DNA of 64,000 nt from Polyangiales bacterium (GCA_044229975.1 JBGARZ010000009.1:155947-219946), one strand, 5' to 3'. Counted from the stretch's first letter, positions 37,768 through 64,000 are shown. Program-made: numbers and translations. The notes: generated by a model from the letters alone, not told the origin.

Positions 37768-37921
37768 CCGACGAACCCGCGCCGACGCTCTCAGCTTCTC
37801 TGACACGGCACAAGGGCCGCCTCTCACCGCTAGACGCCGCGCGTCGGGGGCAATCTGACAGGCCGCCCGATTCGCCTTCGACGCTGCGTCGCCCACGTCA
37901 GATCAGCACCTCGAAGTTCGG

Positions 37922-40165: not shown

Positions 40166-40176
40166 AGAGGTCCATC

Positions 40177-41443: not shown

Positions 41444-44400
41444 TCAAGGAGAGTCGATGGAAACCGCGCGACAAGCGGTGGCGGGAGCCCAGGCGTCAGT
41501 AAGACTCAACGAGGGGAGATCGAGGGGGATGACATCCAGGGAGTCGCGGCAGATACGAAAATTGGTTCGACGAAGGACATCGGTGATGGCAGGAGCCACG
41601 GCGGCGGCGGGCGCTTCAGTCTGCCACAACCGCGCGAGATGATCATTTGCCCCCGTGACCAGAAGCCTCCCGTCGGGCGAAAAGGCCACCGATGTGACTT
41701 GCAGTGCATGGCCTCGGAAGGCGTGGAGTAGGCGCCAGGTACCCACTTCCCAGACCCGCGCCGTAAGATCGTCTGATCCGCTGACCAGTCTTGTTCCGTC
41801 GGGGGAAAAGGCGATCGCCGCGATCCCTCCGTTGTGCCCTCGCAATGCTTGGAGATGGCGTCCGCTCCCTGCTTCCCAGATGCGCACGGTAGAATCTCGA
41901 GAGCCTGTAACCAACCGCGTCCCATCGGGAGAAAATGTTGCTGCTGTTATCGAATCTGTGTGGCCGTGTAGGGAGTAACGCGGACGACCCGTGGCAGCGT
42001 CCCAGACCTCCGCAGTTTGAGCGGCGGATCCGGCAATCACTTGTTTCCCGTCCGGAGAGAATCCAATAGCGTAGACCCATGACTGAAGACCTTGGACGGA
42101 CCGCAGTAGACGCCATGTATCCGTTTCCCATATCTGCGCGTCACGACCGGAGAAGCACACGATCAGCCGCGATCCGTCGGGAGAAAGTGCCATCGCCGTT
42201 ATCGCACTACCATCTCCTTCCAGAACGTGGACCAAGCGACCGGTACCCGTCTCCCAGACTCGTACGGTGGAATCCCAAGACCCCGTCAACACACGCGTTC
42301 CGTCCGACGAAAATGCCATGGAACTAATCCTCCACGTATGTCCCTCAAGAGAGTGAAGGGGACGTCCAGTGGCGGCATCCCAGATTCGCGCAGTGTGGTC
42401 TTCGGAACCAGTGCCGATCCATCTTCCATTGGGCGAGAAAGCCACTGCCGTGACCGATTGGGAGTGTCCCTGAAAAGTGCGGAGCATGTGTTGGGGTCCC
42501 GCTTCCCAGATGCGCCCAGTGCGATCTTCGGAAGCCGTGGCAATTCGCCCCCCATCACGCGAGAATGCCACCGCAGTGATTGGCCCGGTATGCCCATGGA
42601 GGATATCGAGCAAGCGCCCACTGGTGTCCCATATTTTCACCAAACTTTCGTCATCCCCGGTAGCCAGTCGTTCTCCGTCTGGTGAAAAAGCGATGGCACG
42701 GACCGATCCATCATGTCGAAGATCACAAAGTGCGGAGCCATCGACTGCCCAGATGCGCGCGGCGTGAAAGCCGTGCTGAGTAGCTAGCAGGCGACCGTCT
42801 GGCGAAAATACGATCGCATCGGCACCGTTCATTTCCGTCATGAGAACGCGAAGCGAATGCCCGGTACTGACGTCCCAGATTCGCATGCTGTTATCCGTGG
42901 ATGTCGTAGCCAACAACGCTCCGCTGGGGGAGAAGGCTATCGCCTGGATGTGGTCGGTGTGCCCCTCAAGAAGATGGAGTAGGTGCCCGGTGGTCACGTC
43001 CCAGATTCGCGCGTTGGAGTCCGAACAGCCAGTGGCTATTCGTGTGCCATCAGGCGAGAATTTCATGCCACGAACCAAGTCATGATGGGTCAGAGAATTT
43101 ATTGCCTGTCCAGTTTCAGTTTCCCAAATCCGCACGCCATAATCAAATGACGCGGTGGCAAGCCTTGACCCGTCAGGCGAGAATGTCACATCATAAACCA
43201 CTCGATCAAACCCCGTAAGGGACCGAAGTAGACGTCCAGCATTAGCGTCCCAGATCCGAGCGGTAAAGTCATGAGACGCGGTGGCCAGTCTTGTTCCGTC
43301 AGATGAAAAAGCGATCGCAACGATTTTATCACGGTGCCCTTCCAGGGAGTGGAGCAATTGCCCTGTGTGTGCATCCCAGATTCGTGCCGTGTGATCCTCG
43401 GATGCGGTCACCAATCGTGTCCCGTCGGGCGAGAACTCCATCGCCGTGATGCCTGCGGTGTGCCCGCGAAGCACCCGAGCGATGGGGTGATCATCGCGCT
43501 CGATGACGTCCGCGTGAGCGGTGACGCCCCGCAAATCCAGCTTCCTCTCCTGTTGGGCCGCGGCGACCATCATCACCGCGGCTTCCGTCGGCGCGTGGTT
43601 CGCGCTCAGTTCTCGCGCCCGTGCCAACAGCAACTGGTACTTTCCAACCTCTCGTTCGCGCCGCGCTTTTCGCCACTGCACTCCGGCCACCGCTGCGAAC
43701 GTCGCAAGCGACGCCACCACGATGGCGATGGCGCCCACGCCGCGGCGCCACCTCCTCCGCTCCTTCGCCTGGCTACCCGCGACGAACGCCGCCTCGTCGG
43801 TCGTCAGCCTCGGCGTCGTGCGAGACCGCCACGCCACGATCTCTGCCAGCACTGTACCCTGCGACAGCAGATCCTCCCGCCGCCCGCTCCGTACCCACGC
43901 ACGCGTCGCCTCGGACACGCGTGCCCGCTGGGCGTGGCCTTCGACGTCCTCGACCCTCCAGCCCTGTAGCGTCTTCCACTGCGTCAGCAGCGCCTCGTGC
44001 GCCAGTTCGATCGTGGCCGCGCCTCTCGCGTCGACCGCCGACGTCAGCAGTCGCGCCTCGACCAGCGCGTCGATCACCGACTCCGCCACAGCCCTGTCAC
44101 TGACGCGCGCGAGTAGCTCCGCGCGCGGCATCGTCACCCGCGTGCCCTCTGATGACACCAGCGCCAGCATCACCTCCCGCGCCGCCGTCGCCCGCGGACC
44201 GGACTCGGCCCCGACCGTCTTGTCTGCATAGCGTGTCAGCGCGCCGACTACGCCCCCCAACGCCTTATAGGCCTCCGCCGTCAGTACTCGGTTCTCCTTG
44301 CAGTCTTCCCAGAGGAGGTCGGCCGTGAACTGCAACACGGGCAGCGTCGCCGGGCCGGTCTTGGCCTCGGCCACCATCCGCTCGACCAGCCCCTCATCGA

Positions 44401-45967: not shown

Positions 45968-46123
45968 CTGCACTCCTTGAGAAGCCTGCGTCGCGGAGGG
46001 TAGACGGCTTCGACGACGGATCGCGGTGGATTGCGCCGCATTCACGACCTCGCACCGCAGCTCGTCAGGTTGGCCCCCGAGAGGTGCGTCTACGCATCGA
46101 CCCCCCAATCGGAGGAAAACCCA

Positions 46124-46777
46124 ATGGCCCCGCACCGCTCCAACGTCATCCACCTACACGACCGCCCCGCCGAGAGCGCGGAGCCCACGACCCGCTCCTC
46201 GGCTCCCGCCCCAAGGAAGAACGTGACATGGCTGGGTGTGGGCCCGGTCGCTCTCTCGGCGCCGACCCCTCGCGCGGCCGCGACGCCTCCTCCGGTGCCC
46301 CCGCCCCGGTCGAAAGTCGGGGCGCGTCCCGTGTCGCCTCCGCCCGCGACCACGACAGCCCGTCCTGACCCCAAGGCGGCGCCCCCCCGGGCGGCGCCGC
46401 CGCGCGGCCCGGTGAAGGTTCAGCAGTCACCCACCGGGTCGCTGATCATCACCAGCTCCGACGGGACGGGGCGCATCGTGGTGATCCGACCGCCTCCCAT
46501 CGAGGCGCCGACACTGCGTCGCGAGTCCTCTGTCGAAGCGCCGACGCTGCGCCGCGAGTCCCCCGTCGAGGCGCCGACGCTGCGCCGGGCTCCGTCCAAG
46601 CGCGCGCGCGTCGACCATGGGTTCGGGTCGCCGTTTGCGCCCCTGCCAGACCAGCCCCGTGCGGTCCCGGTCGAGCCGCCCAACCGCGCGATGCTCGCCC
46701 TCCTGGCGGCGATCATCGCCCTCCTGACGACACTCGTCGTGCTCACGATAGTGGTGCTGTTCGGAGGCCTCCGATGA
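46124..46777 (+). CDS. Proline-rich tail-anchored membrane protein carrying 33 bp tandem repeats
   Basis: The ATG at 46124 lies 7 nt after GGAGGA. The protein is Pro/Ala-rich and low-complexity. The C-terminal TM helix reads MLALLAAIIALLTTLVVLTIVVLFGGL. Three repeats of (V/I)EAPTLRRES. Confidence 0.5.
   Translation: MAPHRSNVIHLHDRPAESAEPTTRSSAPAPRKNVTWLGVGPVALSAPTPRAAATPPPVPPPRSKVGARPVSPPPATTTARPDPKAAPPRAAPPRGPVKVQQSPTGSLIITSSDGTGRIVVIRPPPIEAPTLRRESSVEAPTLRRESPVEAPTLRRAPSKRARVDHGFGSPFAPLPDQPRAVPVEPPNRAMLALLAAIIALLTTLVVLTIVVLFGGLR
46497..46595. repeat. Three imperfect 33 bp tandem repeats
   Basis: tcgaggcgccgacactgcgtcgcgagtcctctg, then tcgaagcgccgacgctgcgccgcgagtcccccg, then tcgaggcgccgacgctgcgccgggctccg. 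Confidence 0.75.
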
Positions 46778-46825
46778 CGCCTCGCATGGCCGGGTGGCAA
46801 CGGGCACGGCGCGAAAGGTGATGCC

Positions 46826-47179
46826 GTGGCTTCCCCCGGAATCCCCATCGTCGTGCCCGCCATCCTCGCTCCCGTGGGGCGCGAACCACCGCCCGCGGAG
46901 TTCGTCGGCAGTTGCCGCCTCGGGCTGCTGCCGGACGTCCCCACCATCGCGTTGCTGCGGGTGTACCGACGGCACGTCGAGCTCCTCGTCACGCCGGTCG
47001 CCTCCGTGGACATACGAGCGGTGACCTTGAATGGGCGGCGAGCGACCGATCCAGACGCGCAGAGCGGGACCTGGCGAGTGACTGTCTACCGTCATGGTCG
47101 CGGTCTCGCGCTGTCGCTGAGCGTGGAGATGAACGACGGGGGGCGCTTCCAGGAGCAGATCGAACTCGTCCTCGGTTAG
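46826..47179 (+). CDS. Small hypothetical protein (117 aa)
   Basis: GTG start. Balanced, protein-like composition. It fits exactly between neighbouring genes in the co-directional array. Weak call. Confidence 0.35.
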   Translation: MASPGIPIVVPAILAPVGREPPPAEFVGSCRLGLLPDVPTIALLRVYRRHVELLVTPVASVDIRAVTLNGRRATDPDAQSGTWRVTVYRHGRGLALSLSVEMNDGGRFQEQIELVLG

Positions 47180-47192
47180 CCTCCGGGCACCT

Positions 47193-49106
47193 ATGAGATT
47201 CGAGAGGTTCCTACAGTTCGTCGCGAAGCTCGGCACGACCCTCGCCTCGTACGAACGCGCCGAGGTGCTGAGTCAGTGGATGGAGATGCAGCTCGAAGCG
47301 CGGCGCTTCCGGGGCGTCGACGAGGTTCATCGACGACAGATCCTCGCCGCCCTGCAGCGCTGCGGCGCCTCCGACCAGCAACGAACCTACGCGGCCCTGC
47401 TGCTGCCCTCGCCGCACCTGCCGGCGATGTCGACGGGCGAGGCGTGGCTCCTGCTGGCCGGCGCCGAAGGGGGCTTCGTGACCCGCATGCAGGCGCGTCG
47501 GCCGGGTCATCAAGAGGAGGGTCTGACGCTTCTGCCCGACTCCCAGGTGGCGCTGGCAGAGGCTTCCGAGGGGCTTCTTCGGTCCCTCGCGGATCTCGGC
47601 ATGGGAGGACCCAGACAATCATCTATCAGCCTCGGTATCGCTCGGGTTGACGACTTCGTGATGCCGGACCAGGTCACGGGCGCATCCCTGGGCCTGGCCA
47701 CCTGCATCGCCCACCTGTCAGCCTGGACCGAACAGCCGACGCTGGCGCACGTCGTCGGCTCCGCGATCGTCGATGCCCGGGGGAACCTCCACAAGGTGCA
47801 CAACATCCGTGAAAAGATCGAGGCGCTGCGGCTCCGCTGGCCGATGGTCACCCACCTGGTGGTCGCGAGCGATCAGACCGACGCCCCCGAGGACCAGGGC
47901 GTGACGGTGATCCATTGTGATTCCCTCGAACAGGCGTGGGGCCACTTCGGCCTCTCGTTGAACGGAGTTCTCGCTCCGCTTCCCGTCGATGAACTCCGGT
48001 CGAGGATCGACCGCCTTCCATTGGAGCGATCGAACATCGGCGACCGGGAGACTTGGTCGAAGCTCGCCCTCGATGCGCTCAGCTGGTCCGCCGCGATCGA
48101 GATCGTGCTCAGGTCCGCCGACCTGCCTCAACAGGGCGTAGACGATCTGCGAAGTTATCAGTTCAAGGCATTGGGCTTCGCCGCGCTGTTCGCGTTGCAG
48201 GCGGGGGACACGAGGGCCGCGAGCCGACACCTCGACGCGCTCGACGCCATGATCCAGCGAGGCGAGGCGAGGTGGGACGACGTGGAACTCGAGGTCCGCG
48301 TGTCCGTCGCGATCACCCAGGCCGGCGCCGCCATCGCGCGCCAGACCGACGCCCTCGGCCATGCCAGGGAGGCGGTCAAGCTCGCGGAGGGGCTCGGTGG
48401 TCGGCTCCGTCGGCGCCTGCTCGGGAAGGCGATAGGGACTTTGGGGCGGGCCATTCTTCACGGCGGCGATCCAGCGGGCGCCTGCGACACGTTGAGGGAG
48501 GCGGTGCAGTTCCAACGGACCAACGAACCGGAGGAGGAGGCGCGCTCCCTCTGCTACGTCGCGACGGCCGTTCGGATGGCCGGCGACCCTGCGGCGGCCC
48601 TCGTGCAAGTTCTCACGGGGTTGGAGCTCACCGCGAAGCGTTCGGTGTTCCTGTCGTCGAGGACCACGCGCATGTACCTCCACCTCGAGAAGGGTCGTTG
48701 CGAGCTCGCGCTTGGTCGCTGGCCAGACGCGCTGGCCTCGTTTGACGTGGTGATCGGCGAGGGCAGGCGGGGGCCGACCGAGGAAACCGAAGAGAGGCCC
48801 AAGCGGGACCATGACTACCCCAAGCTGGGCGCGCTGCGCGGCCGGGCCAGCGCCCTCTACGAGATGGGAAGCCGGCGAACGGCCCTAGCCTATTGGAAGC
48901 GCTGCCTCATGGTGGCCGAAGCAGAATCGAATGGCACCGCGACCGGGCAGATCGCGGCGCTGGCGTTGGCCGATCTCCGGCTGACCGGCGACGTTGAGTT
49001 GTACCGGGACCTCGACGCGCAGATCGCCAGCGCATGGAACCGGCATTGGGGGATGGACGCCGACGAGGAGCGGATGCGGCAGACGGTACATAGGGCGGTC
49101 TACTGA
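47193..49106 (+). CDS. Protein with a Lon-like (peptidase S16) Ser-Lys protease domain and a C-terminal TPR-like helical repeat region
   Basis: Residues about 157-225 read PDQVTGASLGLATCIAHLSAWTEQPTLAHVVGSAIVDARGNLHKVHNIREKIEALRLRWPMVTHLVVA. This aligns with the E. coli Lon catalytic region [64 protein letters not shown]. Ser (GASLG) and Lys (REKIEA) occupy the catalytic positions. The C-terminal 330 aa are helical repeats. Confidence 0.6.
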   Translation: MRFERFLQFVAKLGTTLASYERAEVLSQWMEMQLEARRFRGVDEVHRRQILAALQRCGASDQQRTYAALLLPSPHLPAMSTGEAWLLLAGAEGGFVTRMQARRPGHQEEGLTLLPDSQVALAEASEGLLRSLADLGMGGPRQSSISLGIARVDDFVMPDQVTGASLGLATCIAHLSAWTEQPTLAHVVGSAIVDARGNLHKVHNIREKIEALRLRWPMVTHLVVASDQTDAPEDQGVTVIHCDSLEQAWGHFGLSLNGVLAPLPVDELRSRIDRLPLERSNIGDRETWSKLALDALSWSAAIEIVLRSADLPQQGVDDLRSYQFKALGFAALFALQAGDTRAASRHLDALDAMIQRGEARWDDVELEVRVSVAITQAGAAIARQTDALGHAREAVKLAEGLGGRLRRRLLGKAIGTLGRAILHGGDPAGACDTLREAVQFQRTNEPEEEARSLCYVATAVRMAGDPAAALVQVLTGLELTAKRSVFLSSRTTRMYLHLEKGRCELALGRWPDALASFDVVIGEGRRGPTEETEERPKRDHDYPKLGALRGRASALYEMGSRRTALAYWKRCLMVAEAESNGTATGQIAALALADLRLTGDVELYRDLDAQIASAWNRHWGMDADEERMRQTVHRAVY

Positions 49107-49242
49107 ACAGGGGTTGACTGCTCCGGAGGGCCCGGCACCACGACGTCAGATCGGCCCCGGGGTTCGGAGTCCTACGAGTGTTCGGAGACGACGAAGGTCG
49201 TTCCGGGCCGTGGTGGACGGGCTTCGTGCCGGAGGTGTCGTG

Positions 49243-49566
49243 ATGGACCTGTTTCAGTGGCTGTTCGTTTTTCTTCCCTTCGTGGCGTTCTTCTTCTTGG
49301 TGGCGAAGGCCGCGGGCGTAGCGCCGGGTGAAAGCGCCCCGCGCGCCAACTCCCCAATCACACCGCGCCCGTCCTTCGGCAGTCGGGTTCCGAACGACGA
49401 GGAGGCGATCCTGCACCGCCGGCTTCGGAACATGCTGCTCGGTGACGACAATGCCGTCGCTCGCCTGGTGCAGTACGAGCTGTCGACGGGTGGGTGCCGA
49501 ACGAGGACTGCGGCCTACGAGCGCGCCATCGGACGCATCCATGTAGACAACGTTCGTTTCGACTGA
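49243..49566 (+). CDS. Small membrane protein (107 aa, hypothetical)
   Basis: The ATG at 49243 lies 5 nt after GGAGGTG. N-terminal TM helix WLFVFLPFVAFFFLVA. Confidence 0.4.
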   Translation: MDLFQWLFVFLPFVAFFFLVAKAAGVAPGESAPRANSPITPRPSFGSRVPNDEEAILHRRLRNMLLGDDNAVARLVQYELSTGGCRTRTAAYERAIGRIHVDNVRFD

Positions 49567-49653
49567 GCGGTCTCGCGCTCCGGCGGGACGACTACTGTCC
49601 GCGTCAGTTCGCCCCTCACCCAAAGCGTCTGGTGGATCGAACCGGAGACCGCC

Positions 49654-51189
49654 ATGTCACAACTCGATCCCGTCCTCCTCCGCGATACCCGTGCGTACCT
49701 CCTGCTTCGTCTCGGCCGCTGTGCCGAGGTGGATCGCTGCATGGAGCGCCTCGTCAACGCTGCCACCCAGCTGCCCTCGCAGGTCGACCCGGCCGACAGC
49801 CGACAGCGTTGGTTCCACCGCGCTCGTCGGATGTCGGCGGGATTCGGAGAGATCACACGCAAGTTGGTCGACGACCTCCCCTGGGTTCCGCTGCCCGAGG
49901 GGGTCGAGGCTCTTGCTGCGACGCTCCGGCGCGAGCTCACCCCCATTGCCCGTGAGGTGTTGGCGCTGAGGTTTTCACTGGGCTTCGGCGAGCCGTCGAT
50001 CGCCGATCTGATCAACCAGTCGGTCGCGGAGGTCGAGCTCACGTTGGGCGCGGCGATCGGCGTGGCGCGACTCACGATCGGGAGCTTCCACGCGCCGCTC
50101 GGGCTGCTGTTGGGGGCGGTCTTCCGCCTCGACCCGGACCGGGTTCCCTCAATCGGTGACCAGTCGATCGCCGCGGTGGGAGAGGTGATCGACGGTCGAT
50201 ACCGCATAGAGGGCCTGCTCGGTCGCGGCGCCTCGGCGCAGGTCTTCCTGGCCTCCGATCTGCAAATCCGGGGACATCAGGTCGCCCTCAAGCTCATGCG
50301 ACAACCCGTGAGCGATGCGATGGTCGCCGACGCGATACGGCGAGAGTTGGAGATCCTGGCGAGCCTCTGGCATCCGTCGGTGGTGCAGTTGAGGGGGAAC
50401 GGACAACACCGCGGGCGTATCTACCTGACGATGCCGTTTCTCCACGGAGAGACGCTCGCGAATCGGATCGCGCGCCACCCGGCAGGTCTGGGCCGCGCCG
50501 AGGCGCAGCGCATCTTCGTCGCGCTCGCCGGCGCTCTTTCGGCCATCCACGGCGTCGGCGTCCGACACCAGGACCTAAAGCCGCAGAACATCTATCTCGC
50601 GACGATCCCGGGAAGCCTGGAGGAGCATCCGTTGATCCTCGACCTCGGTGTCGCTGCGCGTCACGACGAGCTCGTCGCCGCGGGGACGCCTCCGTACATG
50701 GCACCGGAGGTCGCGCAGGACTTCCTGGCTTCAACCTACGCCGGGGACGCGGCGCGAGTGAGTGAGAAGGCGGACATCTACTCGCTGGCCTCGTGCCTGG
50801 TCGAGGCGCTCGCCCCAGACATCTTCGTTGGACTCGTCGGCGCCGGCGCCTCCCCCGACGCGCTCTTCGAGCGGCGCGCGTCGGGCGTGCTCCCGCGCTG
50901 GACCGACCACCGCCTGTCCGACCTGGCGTCGTCGCTGAGCCGCTGGATGGCGGCCGCGCCTGAGGCTCGGCCGGACGCGGTCGTGTTCGCGCGGGAGCTG
51001 TCCGTCCTCACGGCGCACCCGGGGCGACGCGCGGCCCGGAGGTGGTTCGCGCGGCGGGTGCGCGGCCCGTCCGCAGCGGTCGCAGGCGCGGTAGGGGATT
51101 GGTGGGGCCGCGTGGTTCCAGGCCCTCTGGGGGCTTCGCCTGGTAGCCATCCGTCGACGCCTGAGGCGTCGACGTCAACAGTTGTGTAG
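49654..51189 (+). CDS. Ser/Thr protein kinase with an N-terminal sigma-70 region-4-like HTH
   Basis: N-terminus TPIAREVLALRFSLGFGEPSIADLINQSVAEVELTLGAA resembles sigma region 4. The kinase domain has GRGASAQVF, VALK, HQDLKPQN, DLG, APE and DIYSLA. Confidence 0.85.
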   Translation: MSQLDPVLLRDTRAYLLLRLGRCAEVDRCMERLVNAATQLPSQVDPADSRQRWFHRARRMSAGFGEITRKLVDDLPWVPLPEGVEALAATLRRELTPIAREVLALRFSLGFGEPSIADLINQSVAEVELTLGAAIGVARLTIGSFHAPLGLLLGAVFRLDPDRVPSIGDQSIAAVGEVIDGRYRIEGLLGRGASAQVFLASDLQIRGHQVALKLMRQPVSDAMVADAIRRELEILASLWHPSVVQLRGNGQHRGRIYLTMPFLHGETLANRIARHPAGLGRAEAQRIFVALAGALSAIHGVGVRHQDLKPQNIYLATIPGSLEEHPLILDLGVAARHDELVAAGTPPYMAPEVAQDFLASTYAGDAARVSEKADIYSLASCLVEALAPDIFVGLVGAGASPDALFERRASGVLPRWTDHRLSDLASSLSRWMAAAPEARPDAVVFARELSVLTAHPGRRAARRWFARRVRGPSAAVAGAVGDWWGRVVPGPLGASPGSHPSTPEASTSTVV

Positions 51190-51231
51190 GGTCGGACAGG
51201 TGAGGGGCCGGGACATTGGAGAAGACGGGCA

Positions 51232-54200: not shown

Positions 54201-56073
54201 CTCCGTTGTGTCAGCGGTGTTCTCGCCCGACAGCCAGCGCATCGTCTCCGCGTCAACGGATCGCACGGCGAGGATATGGGACGCTGAGAACGGGCGATTG
54301 CTCACCACCCTCCAAGGACACCAGGCAGAGGTATCCGCCGCAACATTCTCGCCCAACGGGCAAAGGGTTGCTACCGCATCTCGCGATCGCACGGCGAGGA
54401 TATGGGACGTCGAAAACGGACGACTGATCGCCACTCTCCAGGGGCACCAAGCCAGGGTATCCTCTGCAGCGTTCTCACCCAACGGACGACGCCTCGTGAC
54501 CGCTTCTGGCGATCAAACCGCAGGGGTGTGGGAAGTTGAGAGCGGACGATTGCTCACAGCTTTTCAAGGGCACCAAGGGCCGGTATTCTCTGCGACGTTC
54601 TCGTCCGATGGACAACGAGTCGCAACCGCTTCTGACGATCAAACCGCGCGGGTGTGGGAGGTCGAGAGCGGGCGATTGCTTGCCACCCTTAGGGGGCACC
54701 AAGGATCGGTATTCTCCGCAACATTCTCGCCCGAGGGACGACGCGTCGCAACCGCTTCCCGCGATCAAACCGCACGGGTGTGGGAGGTCGAGAGCGGGCG
54801 ATTGCTCACGACGCTCCAAGGGCATCCACAGAGAATGAGTTTTGCGCACTTTTCGCCCGATGGCCAACGAATCGCCGCCGTGTATGGCGATCTTACGGCG
54901 CGGGTCTGGGAAGCTGGCACCGGCCAATTGCTCTATGCTCTCCAAGGGAATCAAGGCGAGATGCTCTCCGCGACGTTCTCGCGGAATAGTCGGTGGATCG
55001 TTACCACCTCTCGGGACACCATCGCACGGGTGTGGGAGGCCAGAAGCGGACAGCTACTTGCTACTCTTCGAGGAGGTACAGAGATCATACACTCGGCGGC
55101 GTTCTCGCCCGACGGTCGATGGATCGTCACCACGTCGAGCGATTGTGCGGCGAGAGTCTGGGAAACCGAGAGCGGTCAACTGGTCGCTACACTCCAAGGA
55201 CACCTGAACTGGGTCAGTTCCGCGGCGTTTTCGCCAGACGGCCAACGGGTTGTCACCGCCTCAATCGATCGCACGACAAGGATATGGAATGCCATGGACG
55301 GTGTTCAGATTGCCGTGCTTGAAGGGCATCAAGATGGGGTGACATCCGCGGCGTATTCGCCAGACGGTCGGAGGGTCGTGACTGCGTCAAACGATCACAC
55401 GGCAAGGGTTTGGGGGGTCGAAGGCGGGCGCCTCCCGGTCACTATGCGGGGACATGTGGGACCAGTGCTCTCCGCAATGTTCTCACCCACTGGGCGAACC
55501 ATCGCTACCCAGGGCCTCAATGACACCGTACGAGTGTGGGACGCTGACAGTGGACAGACGCTCACTACACTTGCTGCATCAGCCAGTGAGATAAGCTCCT
55601 CCTCGTTCTCGACGGATGGGCAGCGAATCGTCACGGTGTCTGCCGAAGACGGCGCTGCAGTTGTCTGGGGAACCAGAGGTGGGCGTCGACTGTTTACGTT
55701 CCAAAGAGGTCCTGGGAGAGTGAACTCCGCCGCGTTTTCGCCAGATGGACGGCGGGTCGTCACCGCATCTTCGGATGGGACTGCGAATGTGTGGGATGCC
55801 GTGGTTCTCACCCCTCCCTTGCTTGCTCGCTGGTTCTTCAGTCGAACCAACTTTCGTGTCTGCCGCAACTCCCTTGACGTCATCGCCGTCGACGTCCCCT
55901 CTCTCCCCAGGATCCGCAACAGTCCCTGGGCGACCGATGAGGAGTGCCGCCGCACCGCGCTCTCTCCCAGTGTGCACACCCCCACCGCTCCGCCTGCTAC
56001 CGATGCAGGTCTACTCCCTGATGGAGCACTCTCTCGCCCGTCGCGCAGCACCACCCCGCCCGCCGTCCGTTGA
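51232..56073 (+). CDS. STAND P-loop NTPase with an N-terminal HEPN-like (Rx4H) domain and 14 C-terminal WD40 repeats; paralogue of the 41444..45967 protein
   Basis: GTG start 10 nt after GGAGA. PYRGLESFGPEHAVLFVGRE...VTGPSGAGKTSLL is the Walker A region. LDQAEE is the Walker B region. A TM segment is present. Fourteen repeats of 42 aa follow, each of the LQGHxxxVxSAxFSPDGxRVVTASxDxTARVWE type. The N-terminus contains LVALRNEVLH. Confidence 0.85.
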   Translation: MIDTDVSSFEAVLRRARAEFPVPIADAVVEYEGTRDPHERMLKLVELFRAALRMVATCALAARLSVGPGPKGEDERRAVALLEELRRRSLTDGQWIELTRELLRPWRLAALDHPLPELVHGFDARGGRMALCFETLVALRNEVLHGPRLKGPPRPMEEIVGHLIPALEESLVLLAPVWARVRLVVVLAQRSASGVPLAWELVGQTPPRGRWRTITIPGTESVEAGAAILVNGSGAMVLAMSVALVVRRPSPGAVEETFFLDGGEKGEARYMALPSPAVLMVAGAWAQFRLSMVPEPEVSASDRAVPDRPYRGLESFGPEHAVLFVGRETLIEALANRVRRYGLVTVTGPSGAGKTSLLRAGIGPELARRNRQPARGARSRNGDVGLDYHMVYVRPGVNPWGSLLRALERELTDWRSPDAAVHEAATGLAASLRTYARERRCRVVLALDQAEELFTLRADMEQRAMWGALLMGLGEDDEGPTRVVLSLREDWISLMATLPHVGALVGRQVEVVNRPDREALIRVLVEPAERFGARYEEGLVDTMVDEVGETPAALALLQFTADRLWEIGHDDRRLTREEYKAIGGVKGSLGRHADEELARMTTSEQRTARELLIGMVTAAWTRSARLEEELIEAVSRKDAQAVLEKLTAARLVTRQDNPATVEIVHEALLTHWPRMQAWRAEDEEGVVWRARLREAVRDWNRSGNAKAWLWGEDVLAGLALWEGERAQIYGADERRFIEASWRKVRQANQRLWMMVAGVMAVLAGISAFATVQWRKARSQGKVASQREGEARRAERGMEYRSLLASARRLELDGNNDKALAMWLAVLDRETALEVNAHDGLERLLLWRDLANNGNGTYLLQGHQGEVSSTTFSPDGRRVVTASSDQTARVWEVETGRLLATLQGHRDIVHSATFSPDGRRVVTASSDQTARVWEVETGRLLAILQGHRDIVRSATFSPDGQHVVTASGDRTARVWEAGSGRLLTTLQGHQGSVVSAVFSPDSQRIVSASTDRTARIWDAENGRLLTTLQGHQAEVSAATFSPNGQRVATASRDRTARIWDVENGRLIATLQGHQARVSSAAFSPNGRRLVTASGDQTAGVWEVESGRLLTAFQGHQGPVFSATFSSDGQRVATASDDQTARVWEVESGRLLATLRGHQGSVFSATFSPEGRRVATASRDQTARVWEVESGRLLTTLQGHPQRMSFAHFSPDGQRIAAVYGDLTARVWEAGTGQLLYALQGNQGEMLSATFSRNSRWIVTTSRDTIARVWEARSGQLLATLRGGTEIIHSAAFSPDGRWIVTTSSDCAARVWETESGQLVATLQGHLNWVSSAAFSPDGQRVVTASIDRTTRIWNAMDGVQIAVLEGHQDGVTSAAYSPDGRRVVTASNDHTARVWGVEGGRLPVTMRGHVGPVLSAMFSPTGRTIATQGLNDTVRVWDADSGQTLTTLAASASEISSSSFSTDGQRIVTVSAEDGAAVVWGTRGGRRLFTFQRGPGRVNSAAFSPDGRRVVTASSDGTANVWDAVVLTPPLLARWFFSRTNFRVCRNSLDVIAVDVPSLPRIRNSPWATDEECRRTALSPSVHTPTAPPATDAGLLPDGALSRPSRSTTPPAVR
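53808..54183. repeat. Three near-identical 126 bp tandem WD40 repeat units inside the 51232 gene
   Basis: Units at 53808, 53932 and 54058 are more than 95% identical over their last ~95 nt. They diverge mainly in a roughly 20 nt patch encoding HQGEVSST, HRDIVHSA and HRDIVRSA. Confidence 0.8.
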
Positions 56074-56131
56074 TCGCGGCGCTCGTGCGACAGCGGCCTG
56101 ACCTGCTCGCCCCGAAGCCCATGCTTGCGCT

Positions 56132-57850
56132 ATGAGGGAACCGATGCCACGCCCATCCGCTGCTCCCCCGGCGTCAACCTTCCTCGCACAGCGCTGCGTC
56201 GCCGGGCGCTACGACGTCGTCGGCGCCCTCGACTCGGCGTCGAACCGGGGACGCCTCTTCACCTTCGCTGGCCGAGATCGCGAGACTGGTGACGGCGTGC
56301 TGATCTGTCAGCTTAAGCCGCTCTTCGCGCGCGACCCCAACGTGCGACGCGAACTGGCCGAAGGCGTGGCGAAGTCTGCGCTGCTCTCGCACCCTTCGAT
56401 TCGCGAGGTGCTCGCCTCGGAAATCGGGGACGGCACGGCGTTCTACGTCACCCGCTCTCTCGACGGGCAGACGGTGTCGCGGCGTCTGCGAGGCGGCGCG
56501 ATTTTCACGGAGCGGGAAGTGGTGCTCACCGCCAAGTCCCTGCTGGGAGCCCTGGTGCACGCTCACGAGCGCGGTGTGGTCTTCGGTGGCATCAAGCCAT
56601 CGAACGTCCTGCTGCGTCCCTCTCGCTGCGAAGGAATGCTGGTGGACCTGCCCCGTCCGCCCCTGGACGTGGCCGGCCTCACCCACGCCGCAGCGTATCT
56701 CGAGATCCCGCAAGATTGTGCGCCGGAGGTCCTCGCGACAGGCCGCTTCGACGCGCGTGCGGACCTCTACGGAGTCGGCGTGGTGATGTGGCAGATGGCG
56801 ACCGGTACCCTGGCATTTCGAGACCATCCGAACCTCGCCGACGTCCTGTCACTCGTGATCGAGGAGGGACTCCCCCCAGCCGAATCGGTGAACCCTGACC
56901 TCCATCCCGCTTTGGCCCGGTTGATCGCCCGGGCGACGGCACGCGATCCCGAGGAGCGCTTCGTCTCGGCAGCGGCCATGTTCACTGCGCTCGGCAAGCT
57001 CCCCACGCGAAACGCACCTCTGGTGTCGCCGCAGCGCCTCGACGCGCTCGTGCGCTCCTCGTTTCCGCAGCCCATCGCGCGCACCTATGCTTCCATCGAC
57101 GAGCGGGCAGGGGAGGACGAGCGCCTCGGGCGTCTCATCGACACCACTCACGTCGCCGTCCAGCTCGTCGCGTCACTGGTCATCATGGACCGACACCGCC
57201 AGGGTCTCCCCCCGCTACCCCTCACGAAGACGCCCGTCCCCTTCGCCCGACCCGCGCTCGGGCACTGGGTGTCGGTCGTGCGGGCGAACGCACTCGACCC
57301 CACCGGCGTGCTCCCGCAATTGCACCGCGCGCTGCTGGAAGACGACCAGCACGCGCACCTCCTACGGACGGCGATGGATCGTCTCGTCGAGGTGCGCAAC
57401 CAGTGCCGACACGGGAGTTCCCTGCCCGCCGCCGGATCGCGGCGTCTGCGGACCGATGCGAAGCCGCACCTGCTGACGATGCTCCGCCAGCTGCTCCTCC
57501 TGCGCGACCACACCCTCGTCGTCGTGGACGACATCGACTTTGCCGACGAGGGCTTCGAGTATGTGGTCCGCCCGCTGCGCGGCATGGTCGCGTCGCAACT
57601 GCAGGTCCGAGTCCGTGCGGCCGAGCGCTTCAAGCAGCACCACCTCTGCTTCGCGGATCACGACTTGGTGCCGCGAGTCGACCTGTACCCCCTCGTTCGC
57701 TGGAAGGACTGCCCGCGTTGCGACACGCAGGAGGTCTTCTTCTACGAGTCGGCGGGGGACGAGCGCGTGCACTACGTCTCCTACGACCACGGTCACTCCA
57801 TGAGCGACCCCGACATCCTGCCCGCTTTCCGGACGCTCGGGCTGCTCTGA
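56132..57850 (+). CDS. Pseudokinase (catalytic HRD replaced by FGG) with a C-terminal HEPN-like (Rx4H) domain; RNase L/Ire1-like architecture
   Basis: Kinase-fold landmarks are retained (VLICQLK, HPSIREV, GIKPSNVLL, CAPEVL, DLYGVGVVMWQMATG). The Gly-loop is degenerate. HRD is replaced by VFGGIKPSN and DFG by VDLPRP. The C-terminal 250 aa are homologous to the STAND N-terminal domains and include LVEVRNQCRH. Confidence 0.7.
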   Translation: MREPMPRPSAAPPASTFLAQRCVAGRYDVVGALDSASNRGRLFTFAGRDRETGDGVLICQLKPLFARDPNVRRELAEGVAKSALLSHPSIREVLASEIGDGTAFYVTRSLDGQTVSRRLRGGAIFTEREVVLTAKSLLGALVHAHERGVVFGGIKPSNVLLRPSRCEGMLVDLPRPPLDVAGLTHAAAYLEIPQDCAPEVLATGRFDARADLYGVGVVMWQMATGTLAFRDHPNLADVLSLVIEEGLPPAESVNPDLHPALARLIARATARDPEERFVSAAAMFTALGKLPTRNAPLVSPQRLDALVRSSFPQPIARTYASIDERAGEDERLGRLIDTTHVAVQLVASLVIMDRHRQGLPPLPLTKTPVPFARPALGHWVSVVRANALDPTGVLPQLHRALLEDDQHAHLLRTAMDRLVEVRNQCRHGSSLPAAGSRRLRTDAKPHLLTMLRQLLLLRDHTLVVVDDIDFADEGFEYVVRPLRGMVASQLQVRVRAAERFKQHHLCFADHDLVPRVDLYPLVRWKDCPRCDTQEVFFYESAGDERVHYVSYDHGHSMSDPDILPAFRTLGLL

Positions 57851-57960
57851 TCCAACGGCCAGGATTCGCTTCGAGGTCGACGCCCGACGTCAGGTTGGGC
57901 CGGTCATCGACGGTCTATCTGGCAGGGGCCGACAACGGGCTCGGCCAGATTGGAGTATCG

Positions 57961-58566
57961 ATGAACAAGATTCAGTACATCATCGCCCTCGTCCTCTCTC
58001 TCGGTGCGAGCGTGGTGCTCCCCACGACCACGTACGCCCAGGAGGCGCCAACCGACGAGGGGAGTCCGCAGGAGAACAGCGACGGTGTCTCCGAGGCCCT
58101 CGACCGCTTCGAATCGCGCCTGCGTGAGCTCGCGACCGAAGAGAACGCGCCCGAGGTCATCGCACGACTCGACGACGTCCCAACCGACACCGTGGTCGAT
58201 GAAGATCGATTCCGTGCCCTGATCAGGGAGTACACGGTGCGCTCTCTCCTGGCCTCGACCTCCGCCGCGACGGTCGGTGAGGACAACGTTGTGCCCATCC
58301 AGCAGACGCTCCAGCGCGCCGCCGCCGCGCACGGTGACCGCTTGGTGCGGGCGCTCACCAGGCTCCACGCGCAGCACGGTGACGCCTGCTACGAGCAGGC
58401 GCGCACCCTGATCGAAGACGCCGCAGATCCCGACGTCGAGGTCTCCAGCCTCGGCCAGCAGGTGATCGCGCTGTCCGAGGCGCTCCGGTCGGAGGATGAC
58501 CCGGACACCTCGGAGCGGGTGCTCCTCGAAGGGGTCCGGCTGTTGCGGAACGCGTCCGGGCGCTGA
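57961..58566 (+). CDS. Small secreted acidic protein (hypothetical)
   Basis: The ATG at 57961 follows GGAGT. Signal peptide MNKIQYIIALVLSLGASVVLPTTTYAQE. It is the C-terminal part of ORF 57403..58566. Confidence 0.5.
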   Translation: MNKIQYIIALVLSLGASVVLPTTTYAQEAPTDEGSPQENSDGVSEALDRFESRLRELATEENAPEVIARLDDVPTDTVVDEDRFRALIREYTVRSLLASTSAATVGEDNVVPIQQTLQRAAAAHGDRLVRALTRLHAQHGDACYEQARTLIEDAADPDVEVSSLGQQVIALSEALRSEDDPDTSERVLLEGVRLLRNASGR

Positions 58567-58846
58567 GACGCCCCCAATCCTCCAACGCGTCTGCAGTTCG
58601 TCTCGCGCCAGAAGGGGTTTCGACACGAACGGCAGGCGGATTGCGGGCAAGCAGAGACACTGGTACCTCTGTCGCGCGACGGCGGGGCTTAGCGCTCGGC
58701 GGACTCGGTACGAAACGGCAATCACCTGCACCACCGCCAACCACCATCCGCCAGCGGGCTGACGCGACAGTGTGTGGATGGGTCGTCACCGATCGACACG
58801 ATCCACGCGTCCCCGGCCGTTCTTTCCCCGACAGAAAGACTCTCGC

Positions 58847-59755
58847 ATGCAGCCCTTTGAGCTCATCAGACCAACCACGGGCAACTCTCTCCTGCCACCG
58901 GACAAGCCGATCGTACTATCGGCAGAGGACCCGATTCGCGGTGACCCTGCGTGCGTCCCCTATGTGCTCGATGCGTCCTTGGCCGTCGCGATCAACACGG
59001 CCATCGCCGTCGACCAGCCGTTGCTTGTCACAGGCGAGCCAGGCTGTGGCAAGACGACCCTCGCCTGGGCGATCGCCAGCCAACTCGGCACCACGGTCGA
59101 GGCCTTCCACGTGAAGTCCACTTCCACGGCGCGTGACCTGCTCTACAGCATGGACAATCTGCGCCGATTCCACGACGCGAACTCGAAGGTGGAACTCGCG
59201 GGTGAGCCGCGACACTACCTTCGGCTCGAAGCCCTCGGGCGGGCGTTTACCGCGGACGTCACCCGAGTCGTGCTCATCGACGAGATCGACAAGGCACCGC
59301 GCGATCTCCCCAACGACCTCCTCCGCGAGCTCGACGAGAAGGCCTTCACCATCGTGGAGACGGGAGAGGTGGTGCGGCAGCGGGTGCCTCAAGTGATCGT
59401 GATCACCAGCAACCGCGATCGGCAGCTGTCGGATGCGTTTCTGCGCCGCTGCGTCTACGCGCACATTCCCTTCCCGAGCCCGGAAGTCCTGGTCAAGGTC
59501 ATCGCGGCGCATGCGGGAGCACGGGGCGTGGGCGTCGATCTCGTCGACGCGGCCGTGCGGCGTTTTGGCGAGCTGCGCGACAGCGGGCTGGAAAAGAAGC
59601 CCGCGACGAGCGAACTCCTCGCGTGGGTGCTGGTGCTGCATCGACGAGGAACCACCGCGGCGTCGATCGAAGAGTGCCCGCTCGGTGCCCTGCCCGGACT
59701 CGAGCTGTTGGTGAAAACACCGGAGGACCTTCACCGGATCGTCGCGCAGGGGTGA
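58847..59755 (+). CDS. MoxR-family AAA+ ATPase
   Basis: Walker A reads LLVTGEPGCGKTTLAWA. Walker B reads VVLIDEIDKAPRDLPNDLLRELDE. Sensor motifs VIVITSNR and LSDAFLRRCVYAHIPFP are present. It is the internal ATG of ORF 58772..59755. Confidence 0.85.
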   Translation: MQPFELIRPTTGNSLLPPDKPIVLSAEDPIRGDPACVPYVLDASLAVAINTAIAVDQPLLVTGEPGCGKTTLAWAIASQLGTTVEAFHVKSTSTARDLLYSMDNLRRFHDANSKVELAGEPRHYLRLEALGRAFTADVTRVVLIDEIDKAPRDLPNDLLRELDEKAFTIVETGEVVRQRVPQVIVITSNRDRQLSDAFLRRCVYAHIPFPSPEVLVKVIAAHAGARGVGVDLVDAAVRRFGELRDSGLEKKPATSELLAWVLVLHRRGTTAASIEECPLGALPGLELLVKTPEDLHRIVAQG

Positions 59756-59785
59756 CCTGAGCGGAGGACAGGGAGAGAAGGTTCG

Positions 59786-61186
59786 TTGAGCGCTCAACCA
59801 ATAGACGACCGCGAGGAGTTGCGGCGCTGGGTCACCAAGGTCGCGATCGCCCGCGCGGGCGGCGACCGGGACAACGTTGCGCGCTGTGTCTCGGCGCTAG
59901 CGGAGGGCGTCCTTCGTCTCGCGTTGAAACGACAGGTCCCTGAGCCCATCTACGACCGCGCGTTGCAGGCCGTGCTCAAGGGGAAACAACGCCGGCCGAC
60001 GCTGGGCGACTATGTGCAAGTCTATGCGATGTGCCAGCCAGACCCTTCCTGTCGCCTGCCGACGGTCGATCTGGGCCTCATCCGGCGGCTCCCGCTGGTA
60101 CGAAATGCGGGACAGCACTTTGGTCTATCCGAGCCGGAGAACCTGACCTCACCCGTCGAGGTCTACGTGGAGGCGATCCGGCCGCTGGCCCTGGCCATCG
60201 AGGTGTTCGACGACGAAGAACTCACGGCCCTGGAGCACGGCCCGACCGATCTCCCCGTCCGCCTCACGCTCGATCGGGTGCCACAGCGCGAAGAGCTTTC
60301 CGGGTTCCTTCGGGATGCGAGGGGGCGCGACCGGCGGCTGATCGCTCTTTGGCTCGAAGGCGAGACGCGACAGGGCGTTCGTACGTACTACGAACGAATC
60401 TGTCATGAACTCGCGGAACAGCGGATCACTATCGAGCAACAGATCGAAGGCGAGGATGGCAGCGCCGCCGGCCGTGGCGTCCGCTGGGCGAGGGGTCTGG
60501 CTGATCCGGCCTCGCGCCTGACGTCGCTGATCGAGTCCCTGATGCGTTCCCTCACGACAAGATTGCCGGGAGAGTCAAGGCTCCCTCCTCCGCCAGTCGA
60601 ACGGCTCTCCCTGCATGGAAAGCCGAACGCGCGTTGGGACGAGTGGCTGGATGGGCTGGCGGAGGTGTTGTGGAAGAAGGCTCGTCTCCGCCGGATGCTG
60701 GTGCGCCACGTCGTCGGTCCAGACGAGCGAATCCATCGTTCCGACGAGGCTGTCGTTGGCCGTTATCTGGAGCTCGTGTGGGGTCGCGTCGCGGTGCTCA
60801 TGCGCACGTCGAGGGGCTCGGACATCCGTGTCGTGCTCTCCTTCGAAGTGGAGCGTAGTCGTCTCATTCTGGGAGGGCCGCGTGGCCCGTGGCGCAGCGT
60901 GCTGCGAGCGCTCAGGCAGTGGTGGGAGCGGCGATCCCTGGCAGCGATGCGGGCGCGGCTCGAATCAACGCGCCTTGGCGAAGGCCCGTTGGCGGTAGCG
61001 CTGTCGCCACTCGCGGGCGTACCTGTCGATGCCATCACGAAGGAACTGCGAGATCGCGGCTTCCCCCGAAGTCGACTCGCCGAGACGGCGGCGGATCTCT
61101 GGTACGAGACCGACTGTGGGCGCTACGAGGAGTTGATCGAAAAGATCCCTGAGCGCCTGGACCGTGACGAGGACGAGGGGCGGTGA
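59786..61186 (+). CDS. Hypothetical protein (466 aa) with an N-terminal HEPN-like (Rx4H) domain
   Basis: The N-terminal 150 aa align with the STAND N-terminal domains and include LPLVRNAGQH. It lies between the MoxR ATPase gene and the VWA protein gene. The C-terminal part is of unknown function. Confidence 0.5.
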   Translation: MSAQPIDDREELRRWVTKVAIARAGGDRDNVARCVSALAEGVLRLALKRQVPEPIYDRALQAVLKGKQRRPTLGDYVQVYAMCQPDPSCRLPTVDLGLIRRLPLVRNAGQHFGLSEPENLTSPVEVYVEAIRPLALAIEVFDDEELTALEHGPTDLPVRLTLDRVPQREELSGFLRDARGRDRRLIALWLEGETRQGVRTYYERICHELAEQRITIEQQIEGEDGSAAGRGVRWARGLADPASRLTSLIESLMRSLTTRLPGESRLPPPPVERLSLHGKPNARWDEWLDGLAEVLWKKARLRRMLVRHVVGPDERIHRSDEAVVGRYLELVWGRVAVLMRTSRGSDIRVVLSFEVERSRLILGGPRGPWRSVLRALRQWWERRSLAAMRARLESTRLGEGPLAVALSPLAGVPVDAITKELRDRGFPRSRLAETAADLWYETDCGRYEELIEKIPERLDRDEDEGR

Positions 61187-63999: not shown

Positions 64000-64000
64000 A

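Follow-up and report, generated by a model that had tools for sequence, protein, structure and literature searches.

Predicted membrane-spanning STAND-WD40 receptors and a probable MoxR ternary system side by side in a Polyangiales gene cluster

Introduction

Does a long array of closely spaced genes encode one machine, or several that have come to lie side by side? The question is raised by a locus from a Polyangiales bacterium. The 64,000 nucleotides analysed here (GCA_044229975.1 JBGARZ010000009.1:155947-219946; hereafter the window) carry, from position 41444 to the end, two paralogous STAND-WD40 NTPases together with genes for a Lon-like protein, a Ser/Thr kinase, a pseudokinase, a MoxR-type AAA+ ATPase and a large protein with an FGE-sulfatase domain. 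An earlier note on this DNA had taken them for one accessory system of roughly 22 kb, organised in the manner of bacterial conflict, cell-death or NLR-like immunity systems. Part of that claim stands, in that the key families are predicted constituents of conflict systems, but the evidence does not favour a single integrated system. The reading preferred here, at a probability of about one half, is that of a cluster of atypical composition holding at least two independent modules, predicted to lie at the inner membrane and to sense threats or signals. One would be formed by the two STAND proteins (STAND1 and STAND2) with a kinase and a pseudokinase (g5 and g7), the other by the MoxR ATPase (g9) and the two genes that follow it (g10 and g11).

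Organisation of the locus and probable independence of its modules

Eleven genes, g1 to g5, STAND2 and g7 to g11, run along the plus strand from 46124 to beyond the end of the window, as had been claimed and as the listing of open reading frames (ORFs), their translation and the guanine-plus-cytosine (GC) content by codon position bear out. Divergent from them lies STAND1 (41444..45967, minus strand, 1507 residues), which is indeed a paralogue of STAND2 (51232..56073, plus strand, 1613 residues), the two being 38% identical over their full length; 156 bp (45968..46123) separate the start of STAND1 from that of g1. A public contig identical to the end of the window (L001) carries g11 past the window and brings the full locus to about 24 kb. 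The array stops after g11, the following genes on this contig being on the opposite strand.

The genes are co-directional and separated by short gaps, but of the ATGA and GTGA start-stop overlaps reported earlier only one, a GTGA shared by g10 and g11, was found. In array order the gaps measure 48, 13, 136, 87, 42, 58, 110, 280 and 30 bp, and after the largest, the 280 bp that separate g8 from the MoxR gene, another transcription unit could begin. Promoter and terminator scans of the locus were uninformative: a sigma-70 consensus search of 45800-64000 returned one match, at 55544, no more than in shuffled controls, and none in the divergent intergenic region.

The composition of the locus differs from that of the genes before it. 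GC content is about 0.70-0.73 over the window's first half and drops to 0.61-0.62 across both WD40 regions. At the third codon position (GC3) it is 0.55 and 0.65 in the WD40 segments, in keeping with the impression recorded earlier that these are GC-poorer, 0.73-0.86 in the other genes of the locus and 0.90-0.95 in upstream genes.

The evidence for separate modules comes from comparison loci. Genes of about 400-440 residues homologous to g10 stand beside a MoxR gene in six of them (L005, L007, L008, L010, L012 and L013), and in all of these except L013 a g11-like gene is found together with the other two; in L013 the g10-like and MoxR genes are followed only by a gene of 140 residues. No STAND, kinase or Lon-like gene lies near any of the six. 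A STAND homologue (P0005, in L011) has neighbours that share nothing with g1-g5, and homologues of g7 occur elsewhere beside a TPR-guanylate cyclase or unrelated genes, not beside STAND genes. Because the g9-g11 triad recurs without STAND or kinase genes, and because homologues of the STANDs and of g7 lie in unrelated neighbourhoods, the modules appear to be independent. By analogy, they would have gathered here as unrelated systems do in defence islands. Clustered at 90% identity, all proteins of the locus are singletons; a scan of genome contigs with the g7 family gave three loci, all of them from other genomes, and one of metagenome contigs with the g11 family gave a single locus.

The same neighbourhoods bear on the reading closest to the original claim, in which all twelve genes (the STANDs, the Lon-like protein, the kinases and the triad) would form one cell-death or immunity machine. 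The run of eleven co-directional genes with short gaps would fit such a machine, as would the presence of one domain, here called X, in three of the genes, a GC3 that is below that of the upstream genes throughout the block, and the way in which g5 and STAND2 together mimic fused Pkinase-X-nSTAND1-WD40 proteins, a Rosetta-stone link. In the Esr cluster discussed below, a WD40 sensor at the cell surface is likewise encoded together with MoxR, a vWA protein and Ser/Thr kinases. Set against these are the six triad loci without STAND, kinase or Lon-like genes, the unlike neighbours of P0005, the unrelated contexts of the g7 homologues and the 280-bp gap between g8 and g9, and on balance a single twelve-gene system is judged quite unlikely.

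The two STAND-WD40 proteins

Both STAND proteins consist of domain X, an nSTAND1 NTPase, a predicted transmembrane (TM) helix, a long run of WD40 repeats and a tail containing cysteines. In STAND1, X spans residues 1-288, the NTPase 303-698, the TM helix 743-761 and 15 WD40 repeats 833-1458; in STAND2, X spans residues 1-299, the NTPase 309-705 and the TM helix 753-771, with 16 repeats after it. The earlier assignment to STAND-WD40 proteins is upheld by Pfam, which reports nSTAND1 (PF20703) at 314 bits in STAND1 and 310 bits in STAND2 (cut-off 27.1) along with WD40. Walker A (GPSGSGKT and GPSGAGKT) and Walker B (hhhhDQxEE) motifs read intact in both. The 14 repeats counted previously in STAND2 become 16 by motif count, and 15-16 repeats amount to about two propellers per STAND.

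The first 8-9 WD40 repeats of STAND2 form a tandem array at the level of DNA (53832-54825; period 126 bp, 7.9 copies, 76% matches), in which adjacent units reach 87% nucleotide identity; the repeats of STAND1 are more diverged, at 70% or less. Variation among the STAND2 repeats clusters at about positions 5-7, 9 and 25 of the 42-residue unit. Comparable amplification and diversification of repeats has been reported for the WD40 arrays of fungal NLR proteins. One X-nSTAND1-WD40 relative in the representative library (P0028) carries an FGE-sulfatase domain after its WD40 repeats, which ties the STAND receptors to the sensor domain of the triad protein g11.

Predicted membrane topology

Between the NTPase and the repeats, each protein has a strongly hydrophobic segment, GVGAIAIVVASLATFAAVA in STAND1 (43685..43741, minus strand; Kyte-Doolittle 2.25 over 19 residues) and MMVAGVMAVLAGISAFATV in STAND2 (53488..53544, plus strand; Kyte-Doolittle 2.12). 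An equivalent helix lies about 445 residues past X in 86 of 104 long relatives, with a length of 19-25 residues and a Kyte-Doolittle value of 1.9-3.0. Across these 86 proteins the N-side flank holds on average 5.2 lysines and arginines against 3.5 on the C-side (net charge +3.6 vs +1.0); it is the more basic flank in 65 of them and the less basic in 5. By the positive-inside rule, this basic N-side flank indicates an N-in/C-out orientation. Past the repeats there is a conserved tail, '(R)TN[FL]R[IV]CR[DN]S...W.....C', whose two cysteines fit an oxidising compartment. In both STANDs, X and the NTPase are thus predicted to be cytoplasmic and the WD40 propellers periplasmic. The same topology is found in receptor Ser/Thr kinases, PknB and PknD among them.

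The predicted arrangement is unlike that of cytoplasmic Avs/NLR sensors, and the evidence on which it is built is also what tells against regarding the STANDs as classical proteins of that kind. On that reading the helix would not span the membrane, and the WD40 repeats would bind phage proteins in the cytoplasm. Avs and bacterial NLR proteins do have the same effector-STAND-repeat layout (PMC10907252), and cytoplasmic WD40-STAND proteins are common. Such a reading would leave unexplained a hydrophobic helix conserved in 86 of 104 relatives with its Arg/Lys flanks biased to the N-side, and the conserved two-cysteine tail after the repeats. No Avs or bacterial-NLR model in PADLOC matched the STANDs, which returned HEAT-ARM_XIII (a WD40-repeat match) and weak matches to the ATPases mad8 and mad3 (E ~1e-4). 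A cytoplasmic anti-phage sensor is accordingly considered very improbable here.

Domain X and its conserved motif

Domain X makes up the first ~290 residues of both STANDs and the last ~275 residues of g7. Four proteins of the locus had been said to share it; there are three. The supposed fourth, g10, was ruled out at a profile E-value of 0.47, and comparison of the g10 family with X by hhalign gave a 61-column local match at the motif only (P 7.5e-4 with five sequences, 0.016 with six). No Pfam family matches X even at E<=10. A word-indexed protein search with X found one relative, and an exhaustive profile search was used instead, which gathered 1487 cluster representatives at E<=1e-3, of which 451 reach E<=1e-10; the closest homologue comes from a Myxococcota metagenome-assembled genome (MAG). 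The family occurs in three architectures: X-nSTAND1-WD40, of about 1500-1600 residues; Pkinase-X-nSTAND1-WD40, of about 1750 residues and the most numerous among the matches listed; and a pseudokinase followed by X alone, of about 560 residues, like g7. That three genes of one locus share X is not a circular result, because a control profile built from X-first proteins only, with the window proteins and all kinase-fused members left out, still finds g7 over the full length of X (E 2.8e-15) and matches STAND1 at E 2.8e-70.

An AlphaFold2 model of X from STAND2, made with a 28-sequence alignment, has a mean predicted local distance difference test (pLDDT) of 90.7 and a predicted template modelling score (pTM) of 0.89. 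Eight helices occupy residues 8-180 and a beta-rich part, folded as beta barrels, residues 182-282. Foldseek found no solved relative of this model (best E 0.048), and reported a weak likeness of the beta part to tandem Tudor/KOW barrels.

All three copies in the window contain the motif R-N-x3-H (RNETAH in STAND1, RNEVLH in STAND2, RNQCRH in g7), and most X-first relatives read M-R-K-x-E-T-V-A-H, that is, Rx6H. In the model R140-N-x3-H145 ends helix 128-144 and precedes a loop (145-155) and helix 156-180. In X the bundle's penultimate helix thus gives way to a loop at the motif, which seems to be where HEPN domains have their Rx4-6H (PMC3710099); the eight helices of X were mapped to the four HEPN core helices by inference rather than by superposition of structures. 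As in the HEPN motif, a polar residue follows the R. The best evidence concerning function is the distribution of the motif: 55 of 61 X-first proteins retain it, as do 6 of 7 pseudokinase-X proteins, against 1 of 65 kinase-X-STAND proteins. Because it is nearly exclusive with an active kinase in the same chain, R-N-x3-H may be read as a functional output site that would become dispensable once a fused active kinase supplies the output. A more specific proposal, that X is a HEPN-like RNase effector module, is drawn from sequence and model and is given a likelihood of about one-third.

The kinase and pseudokinase genes beside STAND2

Two genes with kinase folds flank STAND2, g5 ending 42 bp upstream and g7 beginning 58 bp downstream. 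The first (49654..51189, plus strand, 511 residues) joins an ECF-sigma-like domain (residues 27-135) to a Hanks-type Ser/Thr kinase (residues 183-387). The kinase, which had been recognised from sequence, scores 101.7 bits against Pkinase and looks active: the VALK lysine, the HQD catalytic aspartate, the DLG aspartate and APE can all be read. The sigma-like nature of the N-terminus was likewise borne out, by a match to the PhyR sigma-like domain 2lfw (E 5.4e-4) and weakly by Sigma70_r4_2 (E 0.08).

The second (56132..57850, plus strand, 572 residues) is a pseudokinase (residues ~20-295) followed by X (residues ~300-568). As proposed earlier, its kinase part is degenerate, and throughout the family, since the HRD aspartate, the DFG aspartate and the Gly-loop are absent family-wide; its X motif is intact (LVEVRNQCRHG). 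A model of g7 packs kinase fold and X as one compact unit (pTM 0.86). In the pseudokinase-X family the beta part of X also bears an invariant cluster, CPxC...HY...GH (g7 residues 527-555), which is absent from the STAND-fused copies and could be a zinc site.

The existence of fused single-chain relatives suggests, by Rosetta-stone inference, what these neighbours may be doing: g5, STAND2 and g7 look like a split and elaborated version of the fused Pkinase-X-nSTAND1-TM-WD40 proteins. The order of domains in g7, where a dead kinase fold directly precedes a helical domain with R-N-x3-H, also recalls RNase L and Ire1, in which a kinase or pseudokinase precedes the KEN domain, a HEPN RNase. X, however, lacks the permuted KEN fold and brings an additional beta-barrel part; the resemblance is one of architecture by analogy. 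Homology of g7 to RNase L/Ire1 was rejected, a test for a specific structural relation having come out negative.

The MoxR triad

The MoxR-type ATPase g9 (58847..59755, plus strand, 302 residues) is a short protein without long extensions. Its earlier identification is confirmed by AAA_5 at 53.3 bits and by intact Walker A (GEPGCGKT) and Walker B (LIDEID) motifs; it has 7949 homologues, many named MoxR-like ATPase by their source, with relatives in Kofleriaceae and in Deltaproteobacteria MAGs. These relatives, the closest X homologue and the myxo_SS_tail domain of g11 all point to a probable Myxococcota source.

The next gene, g10 (59786..61186, plus strand, 466 residues), encodes a helical N-terminus with RNAGQH and a core with a degenerate P-loop-like 'GE..QG'. 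A word-indexed protein search with g10 returned only itself. Within the g10 family, an Arg and a His in the helical N-terminus are invariant, spaced as R-N-x3-H in 4 of 6 members, and 'GE..QG' is invariant at the P-loop-like position. Two of the six members match iSTAND (PF19995; best E 0.0016) and one matches AAA_16; one matches HEPN (E 0.032) and one HEPN_RiboL-PSP (E 0.22), none of these matches reaching its curated cut-off. From these sequences, g10 is probably a HEPN-like domain joined to an inactive STAND (iSTAND).

The last gene, g11, begins at 61183 on the plus strand, runs to 64000 in the window and ends at the window-equivalent position 65148, encoding 1321 residues in full. Hydropathy places TM helices at residues 94-112, 210-228 and 580-598. 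Family members start with a conserved helical segment of ~70 residues and two TM helices, followed by a conserved, presumably cytoplasmic domain of ~340 residues (~236-575 in g11); Sel1 repeats, an FGE-sulfatase domain (residues 775-1015) and a TonB_C/myxo_SS_tail domain (residues 1192-1281) complete g11. This bears on the description of g11 as a VWA-Sel1-FGE protein, in which FGE (155.5 bits over the full protein) and Sel1 (E 1.5e-12 to the HcpC PDB profile) are well founded, but VWA is not. Residues ~236-575 occupy the place that a vWA domain would, and a candidate vWA strand can be found ('VAFVLDNSSAS'), whose aspartate is not conserved in relatives. The tail scores 77.8 bits against NCBIfam myxo_SS_tail (cut-off 40). 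Among the five complete triads the g11-like genes range from 975 to 1753 residues, with homology over the N-terminal ~550-730 residues; C-terminal tail homology extends to L005, L007 and L008.

MoxR-centred ternary systems with FGS, Sel1 and large TM-bearing components have been predicted by Kaur et al. (2020, eLife, PMC7159879, section 20). In the iSTAND class, MoxR lacks extensions, the vWA protein has a CoxE-like helical N-terminus, N-terminal TM helices occur in about 28% of the systems, a TM helix precedes Sel1, and FGS is the commonest effector (PMC7159879). On sequence features the triad best fits this iSTAND ternary system, almost point by point, with vWA as the missing piece. It agrees in its short MoxR, its conserved three-gene neighbourhood and probably the make-up of the conserved third gene, in which a variable or effector region at the N-terminus would precede an inactive-STAND-like core, and, among the features found in a subset of these systems, in the N-terminal TM helices of g11, Sel1 after a TM helix, and FGS. 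Besides the undetected vWA domain, it differs in gene order, which is MoxR-g10-g11 here and g10-like, MoxR, large gene in the comparison loci, in the apparently HEPN-like N-terminus of g10, a kind not among the N-terminal domains listed in PMC7159879, and in having no diversity-generating retroelement (DGR) nearby. A DGR near the FGE domain was sought and rejected: the FGE-coding DNA has no second, template-like copy in either the window or L001, a search that took in only 64 kb on the upstream side and 1.4 kb on the downstream side, and the scanned proteins of this region gave no reverse transcriptase match.

Guanylate-cyclase-domain genes of ~580-680 residues lie beside the triad in three of the six loci (L005, 10207-11994; L007, 12454-14190; L013, 4926-6749; all on the minus strand). 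Another is found directly upstream of a g7 homologue (P0066), overlapping its gene. TPR matches are confined to the L013 gene and the neighbour of P0066, and the window has no such gene.

The tail of g11 and the sigma-like domain of g5 both bear on a different view of the locus, in which it would serve non-immune envelope signalling, for example myxobacterial social or developmental sensing, with the periplasmic WD40 receptors acting on transcription by way of Ser/Thr phosphorylation and the sigma-like factor, and with X as a non-catalytic scaffold or dimerisation domain. The g11 tail is an AgmX/PglI/GltG-type domain of gliding-motility proteins, the g5 domain is PhyR/ECF-sigma-like, and the commonest relatives of the STANDs carry an active Hanks kinase before X and have lost RxxxxH. 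Their topology, N-terminus in, TM helix and propeller out, is moreover that of Mycobacterium tuberculosis PknD, and no PADLOC system matches the locus. A mere scaffold fits poorly with the strict retention of R-[N/K]-x3-5-H in the kinase-less subfamilies, which points to a catalytic or ligand site. In addition, predicted conflict systems are characterised by nSTAND1, iSTAND-like, FGS and Sel1 domains, the WD40 repeats seem to have been amplified recently and differ at few positions, and the composition of the locus is atypical. Such a signalling role is a serious rival, though a rather unlikely one.

Proposed mechanism

On the preferred reading of independent modules, the first would act as a receptor. 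A ligand would bind the periplasmic WD40 propellers of STAND1 or STAND2, and binding would drive NTP-dependent oligomerisation of nSTAND1 in the cytoplasm and so bring the X domains together. X would be the output, probably as a HEPN-like, metal-independent RNase acting through its R-N-x3-H site. The products of g5 and g7 may supply in trans the parts that are fused in the Pkinase-X-nSTAND1-TM-WD40 relatives, and would probably regulate STAND2 or co-assemble with it by X-X contacts and phosphorylation. In the second module, g9, g10 and g11 would constitute a membrane-proximal MoxR ternary system of the iSTAND type. The Sel1, FGE and TonB_C-like domains of g11 are predicted to be periplasmic, and MoxR would remodel the complex once this sensor part is engaged, following the scheme of Kaur et al.

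Several points weigh against this reading. The comparison loci number about ten and are mostly short metagenomic contigs. The topology is a prediction from hydropathy and charge. There is no significant profile or fold match between X and the known HEPN families, and for want of such a profile match X is not assigned to the HEPN superfamily. Neither iSTAND nor HEPN in Pfam matches g10 itself, and a vWA domain is undetected by Pfam or PDB profiles in g11 and four relatives. The co-directional array and the occurrence of X in three genes could, finally, mean that the modules are functionally coupled in this locus.

A broader and more tentative interpretation, possible but not favoured, concerns the family rather than the locus. 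X-nSTAND1-TM-WD40 proteins and their kinase-fused cousins, at least 1487 cluster representatives, may belong to one extensive and so far undescribed family of NLR-like receptors that span the membrane and have RNase or kinase output, and pseudokinase-X may be a bacterial analogue of RNase L. The ligands of the receptors, bound by periplasmic WD40 propellers, would be extracytoplasmic, for instance an envelope-attacking phage, a predator, an epibiont or a kin signal. By means of an NTP-driven STAND switch, output would come from X as a new HEPN-like RNase or, where the motif has decayed, from the fused Ser/Thr kinase, and free pseudokinase-X would co-assemble on the activated receptor.

Remaining genes and surroundings

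Four of the genes before STAND2, and one after g7, have so far been passed over. The first, g1 (46124..46777, plus strand), encodes a Pro-rich, putatively tail-anchored protein of 217 residues with a C-terminal TM helix by hydropathy (residues 193-211) and has no match in Pfam, PADLOC or NCBIfam. It contains a 33-bp tandem repeat (46496-46587, 2.8 copies) encoding the 11 residues 'EAPTLRRES(S/P)V'. The 117-residue product of g2 (46826..47179, plus strand) matches no family and has no recognisable domain. The product of g3 (47193..49106, plus strand, 637 residues) had been called Lon-like, a description that holds in part: the matches, at residues ~160-247, are weak (1xhk from M. jannaschii, E 0.0034; 1rr9 from E. 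coli, E 0.46), but the catalytic residues align. Ser165 and Lys208, 43 residues apart, fall on the positions of the Lon dyad, and both alignments are collinear. Pfam (including Lon_C), NCBIfam and PADLOC gave no match to a Lon domain in g3, and the TPR matches in the helical region that follows are weak and under the Pfam cut-off. The sequence is suggestive of a Lon (S16)-like Ser-Lys protease with a TPR-like region. A relation of g3 to the TPR-guanylate-cyclase genes near the triads was rejected, there being no similarity at E<0.01. Next, g4 (49243..49566, plus strand) encodes 107 residues with an N-terminal TM helix (residues 3-21, hydropathy 2.37) and no family match. Between g7 and the MoxR gene, g8 (57961..58566, plus strand) encodes an acidic protein of 201 residues, predicted to be secreted, with a putative signal peptide (hydrophobic residues 4-22, then TYA/QE) and again no family match.

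The shift in composition begins at about 33 kb. Between there and STAND1 (33097-41334) lie six candidate ORFs of 319, 374, 435, 577, 747 and 397 residues, some of them overlapping, so that the gene calls are uncertain; their GC3 (0.79-0.88) is below that of the genes before ~31 kb, and none matches Pfam or PADLOC. The block of atypical composition may thus start near 33 kb instead of 41.4 kb. The high-GC3 genes upstream encode ordinary enzymes, a penicillin amidase (17519-20752, minus strand), an amidohydrolase (29798-31558, plus strand) and PntB, the NAD(P) transhydrogenase beta subunit (31919-32719, plus strand). On the other side, a truncated ORF on the opposite strand (6777-7289 of L001, minus strand), ~0.9 kb past the end of g11 and ~2 kb past that of the window, weakly matches PD-(D/E)XK nucleases (PADLOC DruK, E 2e-5; Pfam PDDEXK_1, E 0.05). 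Integrase and transposase families have no match among the window proteins scanned, Rfam gives zero matches over 41-64 kb, and there is no tRNA gene in the entire window.

Relation to known systems

The earlier note had recognised no named system, and PADLOC-DB 2.0 agrees, giving only generic kinase (PD-T4-6, mad6, PglW), weak ATPase and WD40-repeat matches. Avs and bacterial NLR proteins consist of an effector, a STAND module and sensor repeats; they are driven by oligomerisation, and their sensors detect phage proteins in the cytoplasm. In PknD the catalytic part is cytoplasmic and is joined through one TM helix to a beta-propeller outside the cytoplasm, and there is no NTPase switch. STAND1 and STAND2 would combine the switch of the former with the receptor topology of the latter.

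Comparative genomics has predicted that nSTAND1 STAND NTPases belong to conflict systems (Kaur et al. 2021, PMC8195603; Dore et al. 2024, PMC10907252), and none of the papers that mention nSTAND1 in the library searched is experimental. The STANDs of this locus resemble those systems in their NTPase, which is preceded by a putative effector at the N-terminus and followed by sensor repeats at the C-terminus. They differ in that X is neither a described effector nor a described effector-associated domain and has no Pfam model, in a conserved TM helix that would place the repeats on the far side of the membrane, and in their pairing with a separate pseudokinase-X gene. The literature found describes neither domain X nor the predicted TM receptor topology of X-nSTAND1-WD40 STANDs, nor an iSTAND-type component that begins with a HEPN-like domain.

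A further comparison is one of organisation. The Esr cluster of Schaalia odontolytica, studied experimentally, senses epibiotic Patescibacteria (bioRxiv 10.64898/2026.09.08.750141, PMC13622651, a 2026 preprint), and the response it mounts to this outside biological threat depends on phosphorylation (PMC13622651). Like the present locus, where the outside position of the WD40 propellers is predicted, it groups MoxR and Ser/Thr kinases with an extracytoplasmic WD40 propeller sensor; Esr also has a vWA protein. It differs in lacking both a STAND NTPase and X, in sensing through a secreted filament of Ig repeats and not a TM receptor, in its FHA protein and phosphatase, which are absent here, and in its host, a monoderm actinobacterium.

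Significance

If the predicted topology is true, the proteins of this locus would be STAND/NLR switches that read the cell exterior and not the cytoplasm, joining ideas from receptor kinases with those of NLR oligomerisation, which are usually treated separately. The near mutual exclusion of motif and active kinase provides concrete, mutable residues in a family of more than 1000 uncharacterised proteins, and the free pseudokinase-X partner alongside the receptors is a second effector pattern that also gives testable residues. With the triad, the iSTAND ternary systems predicted by comparative genomics would gain a HEPN-like variant. Esr sets the precedent that clusters of surface WD40, MoxR, vWA and kinase proteins can sense biological threats (PMC13622651), and the locus in the window, as a Gram-negative, STAND-containing counterpart to it, would be a timely one to study.

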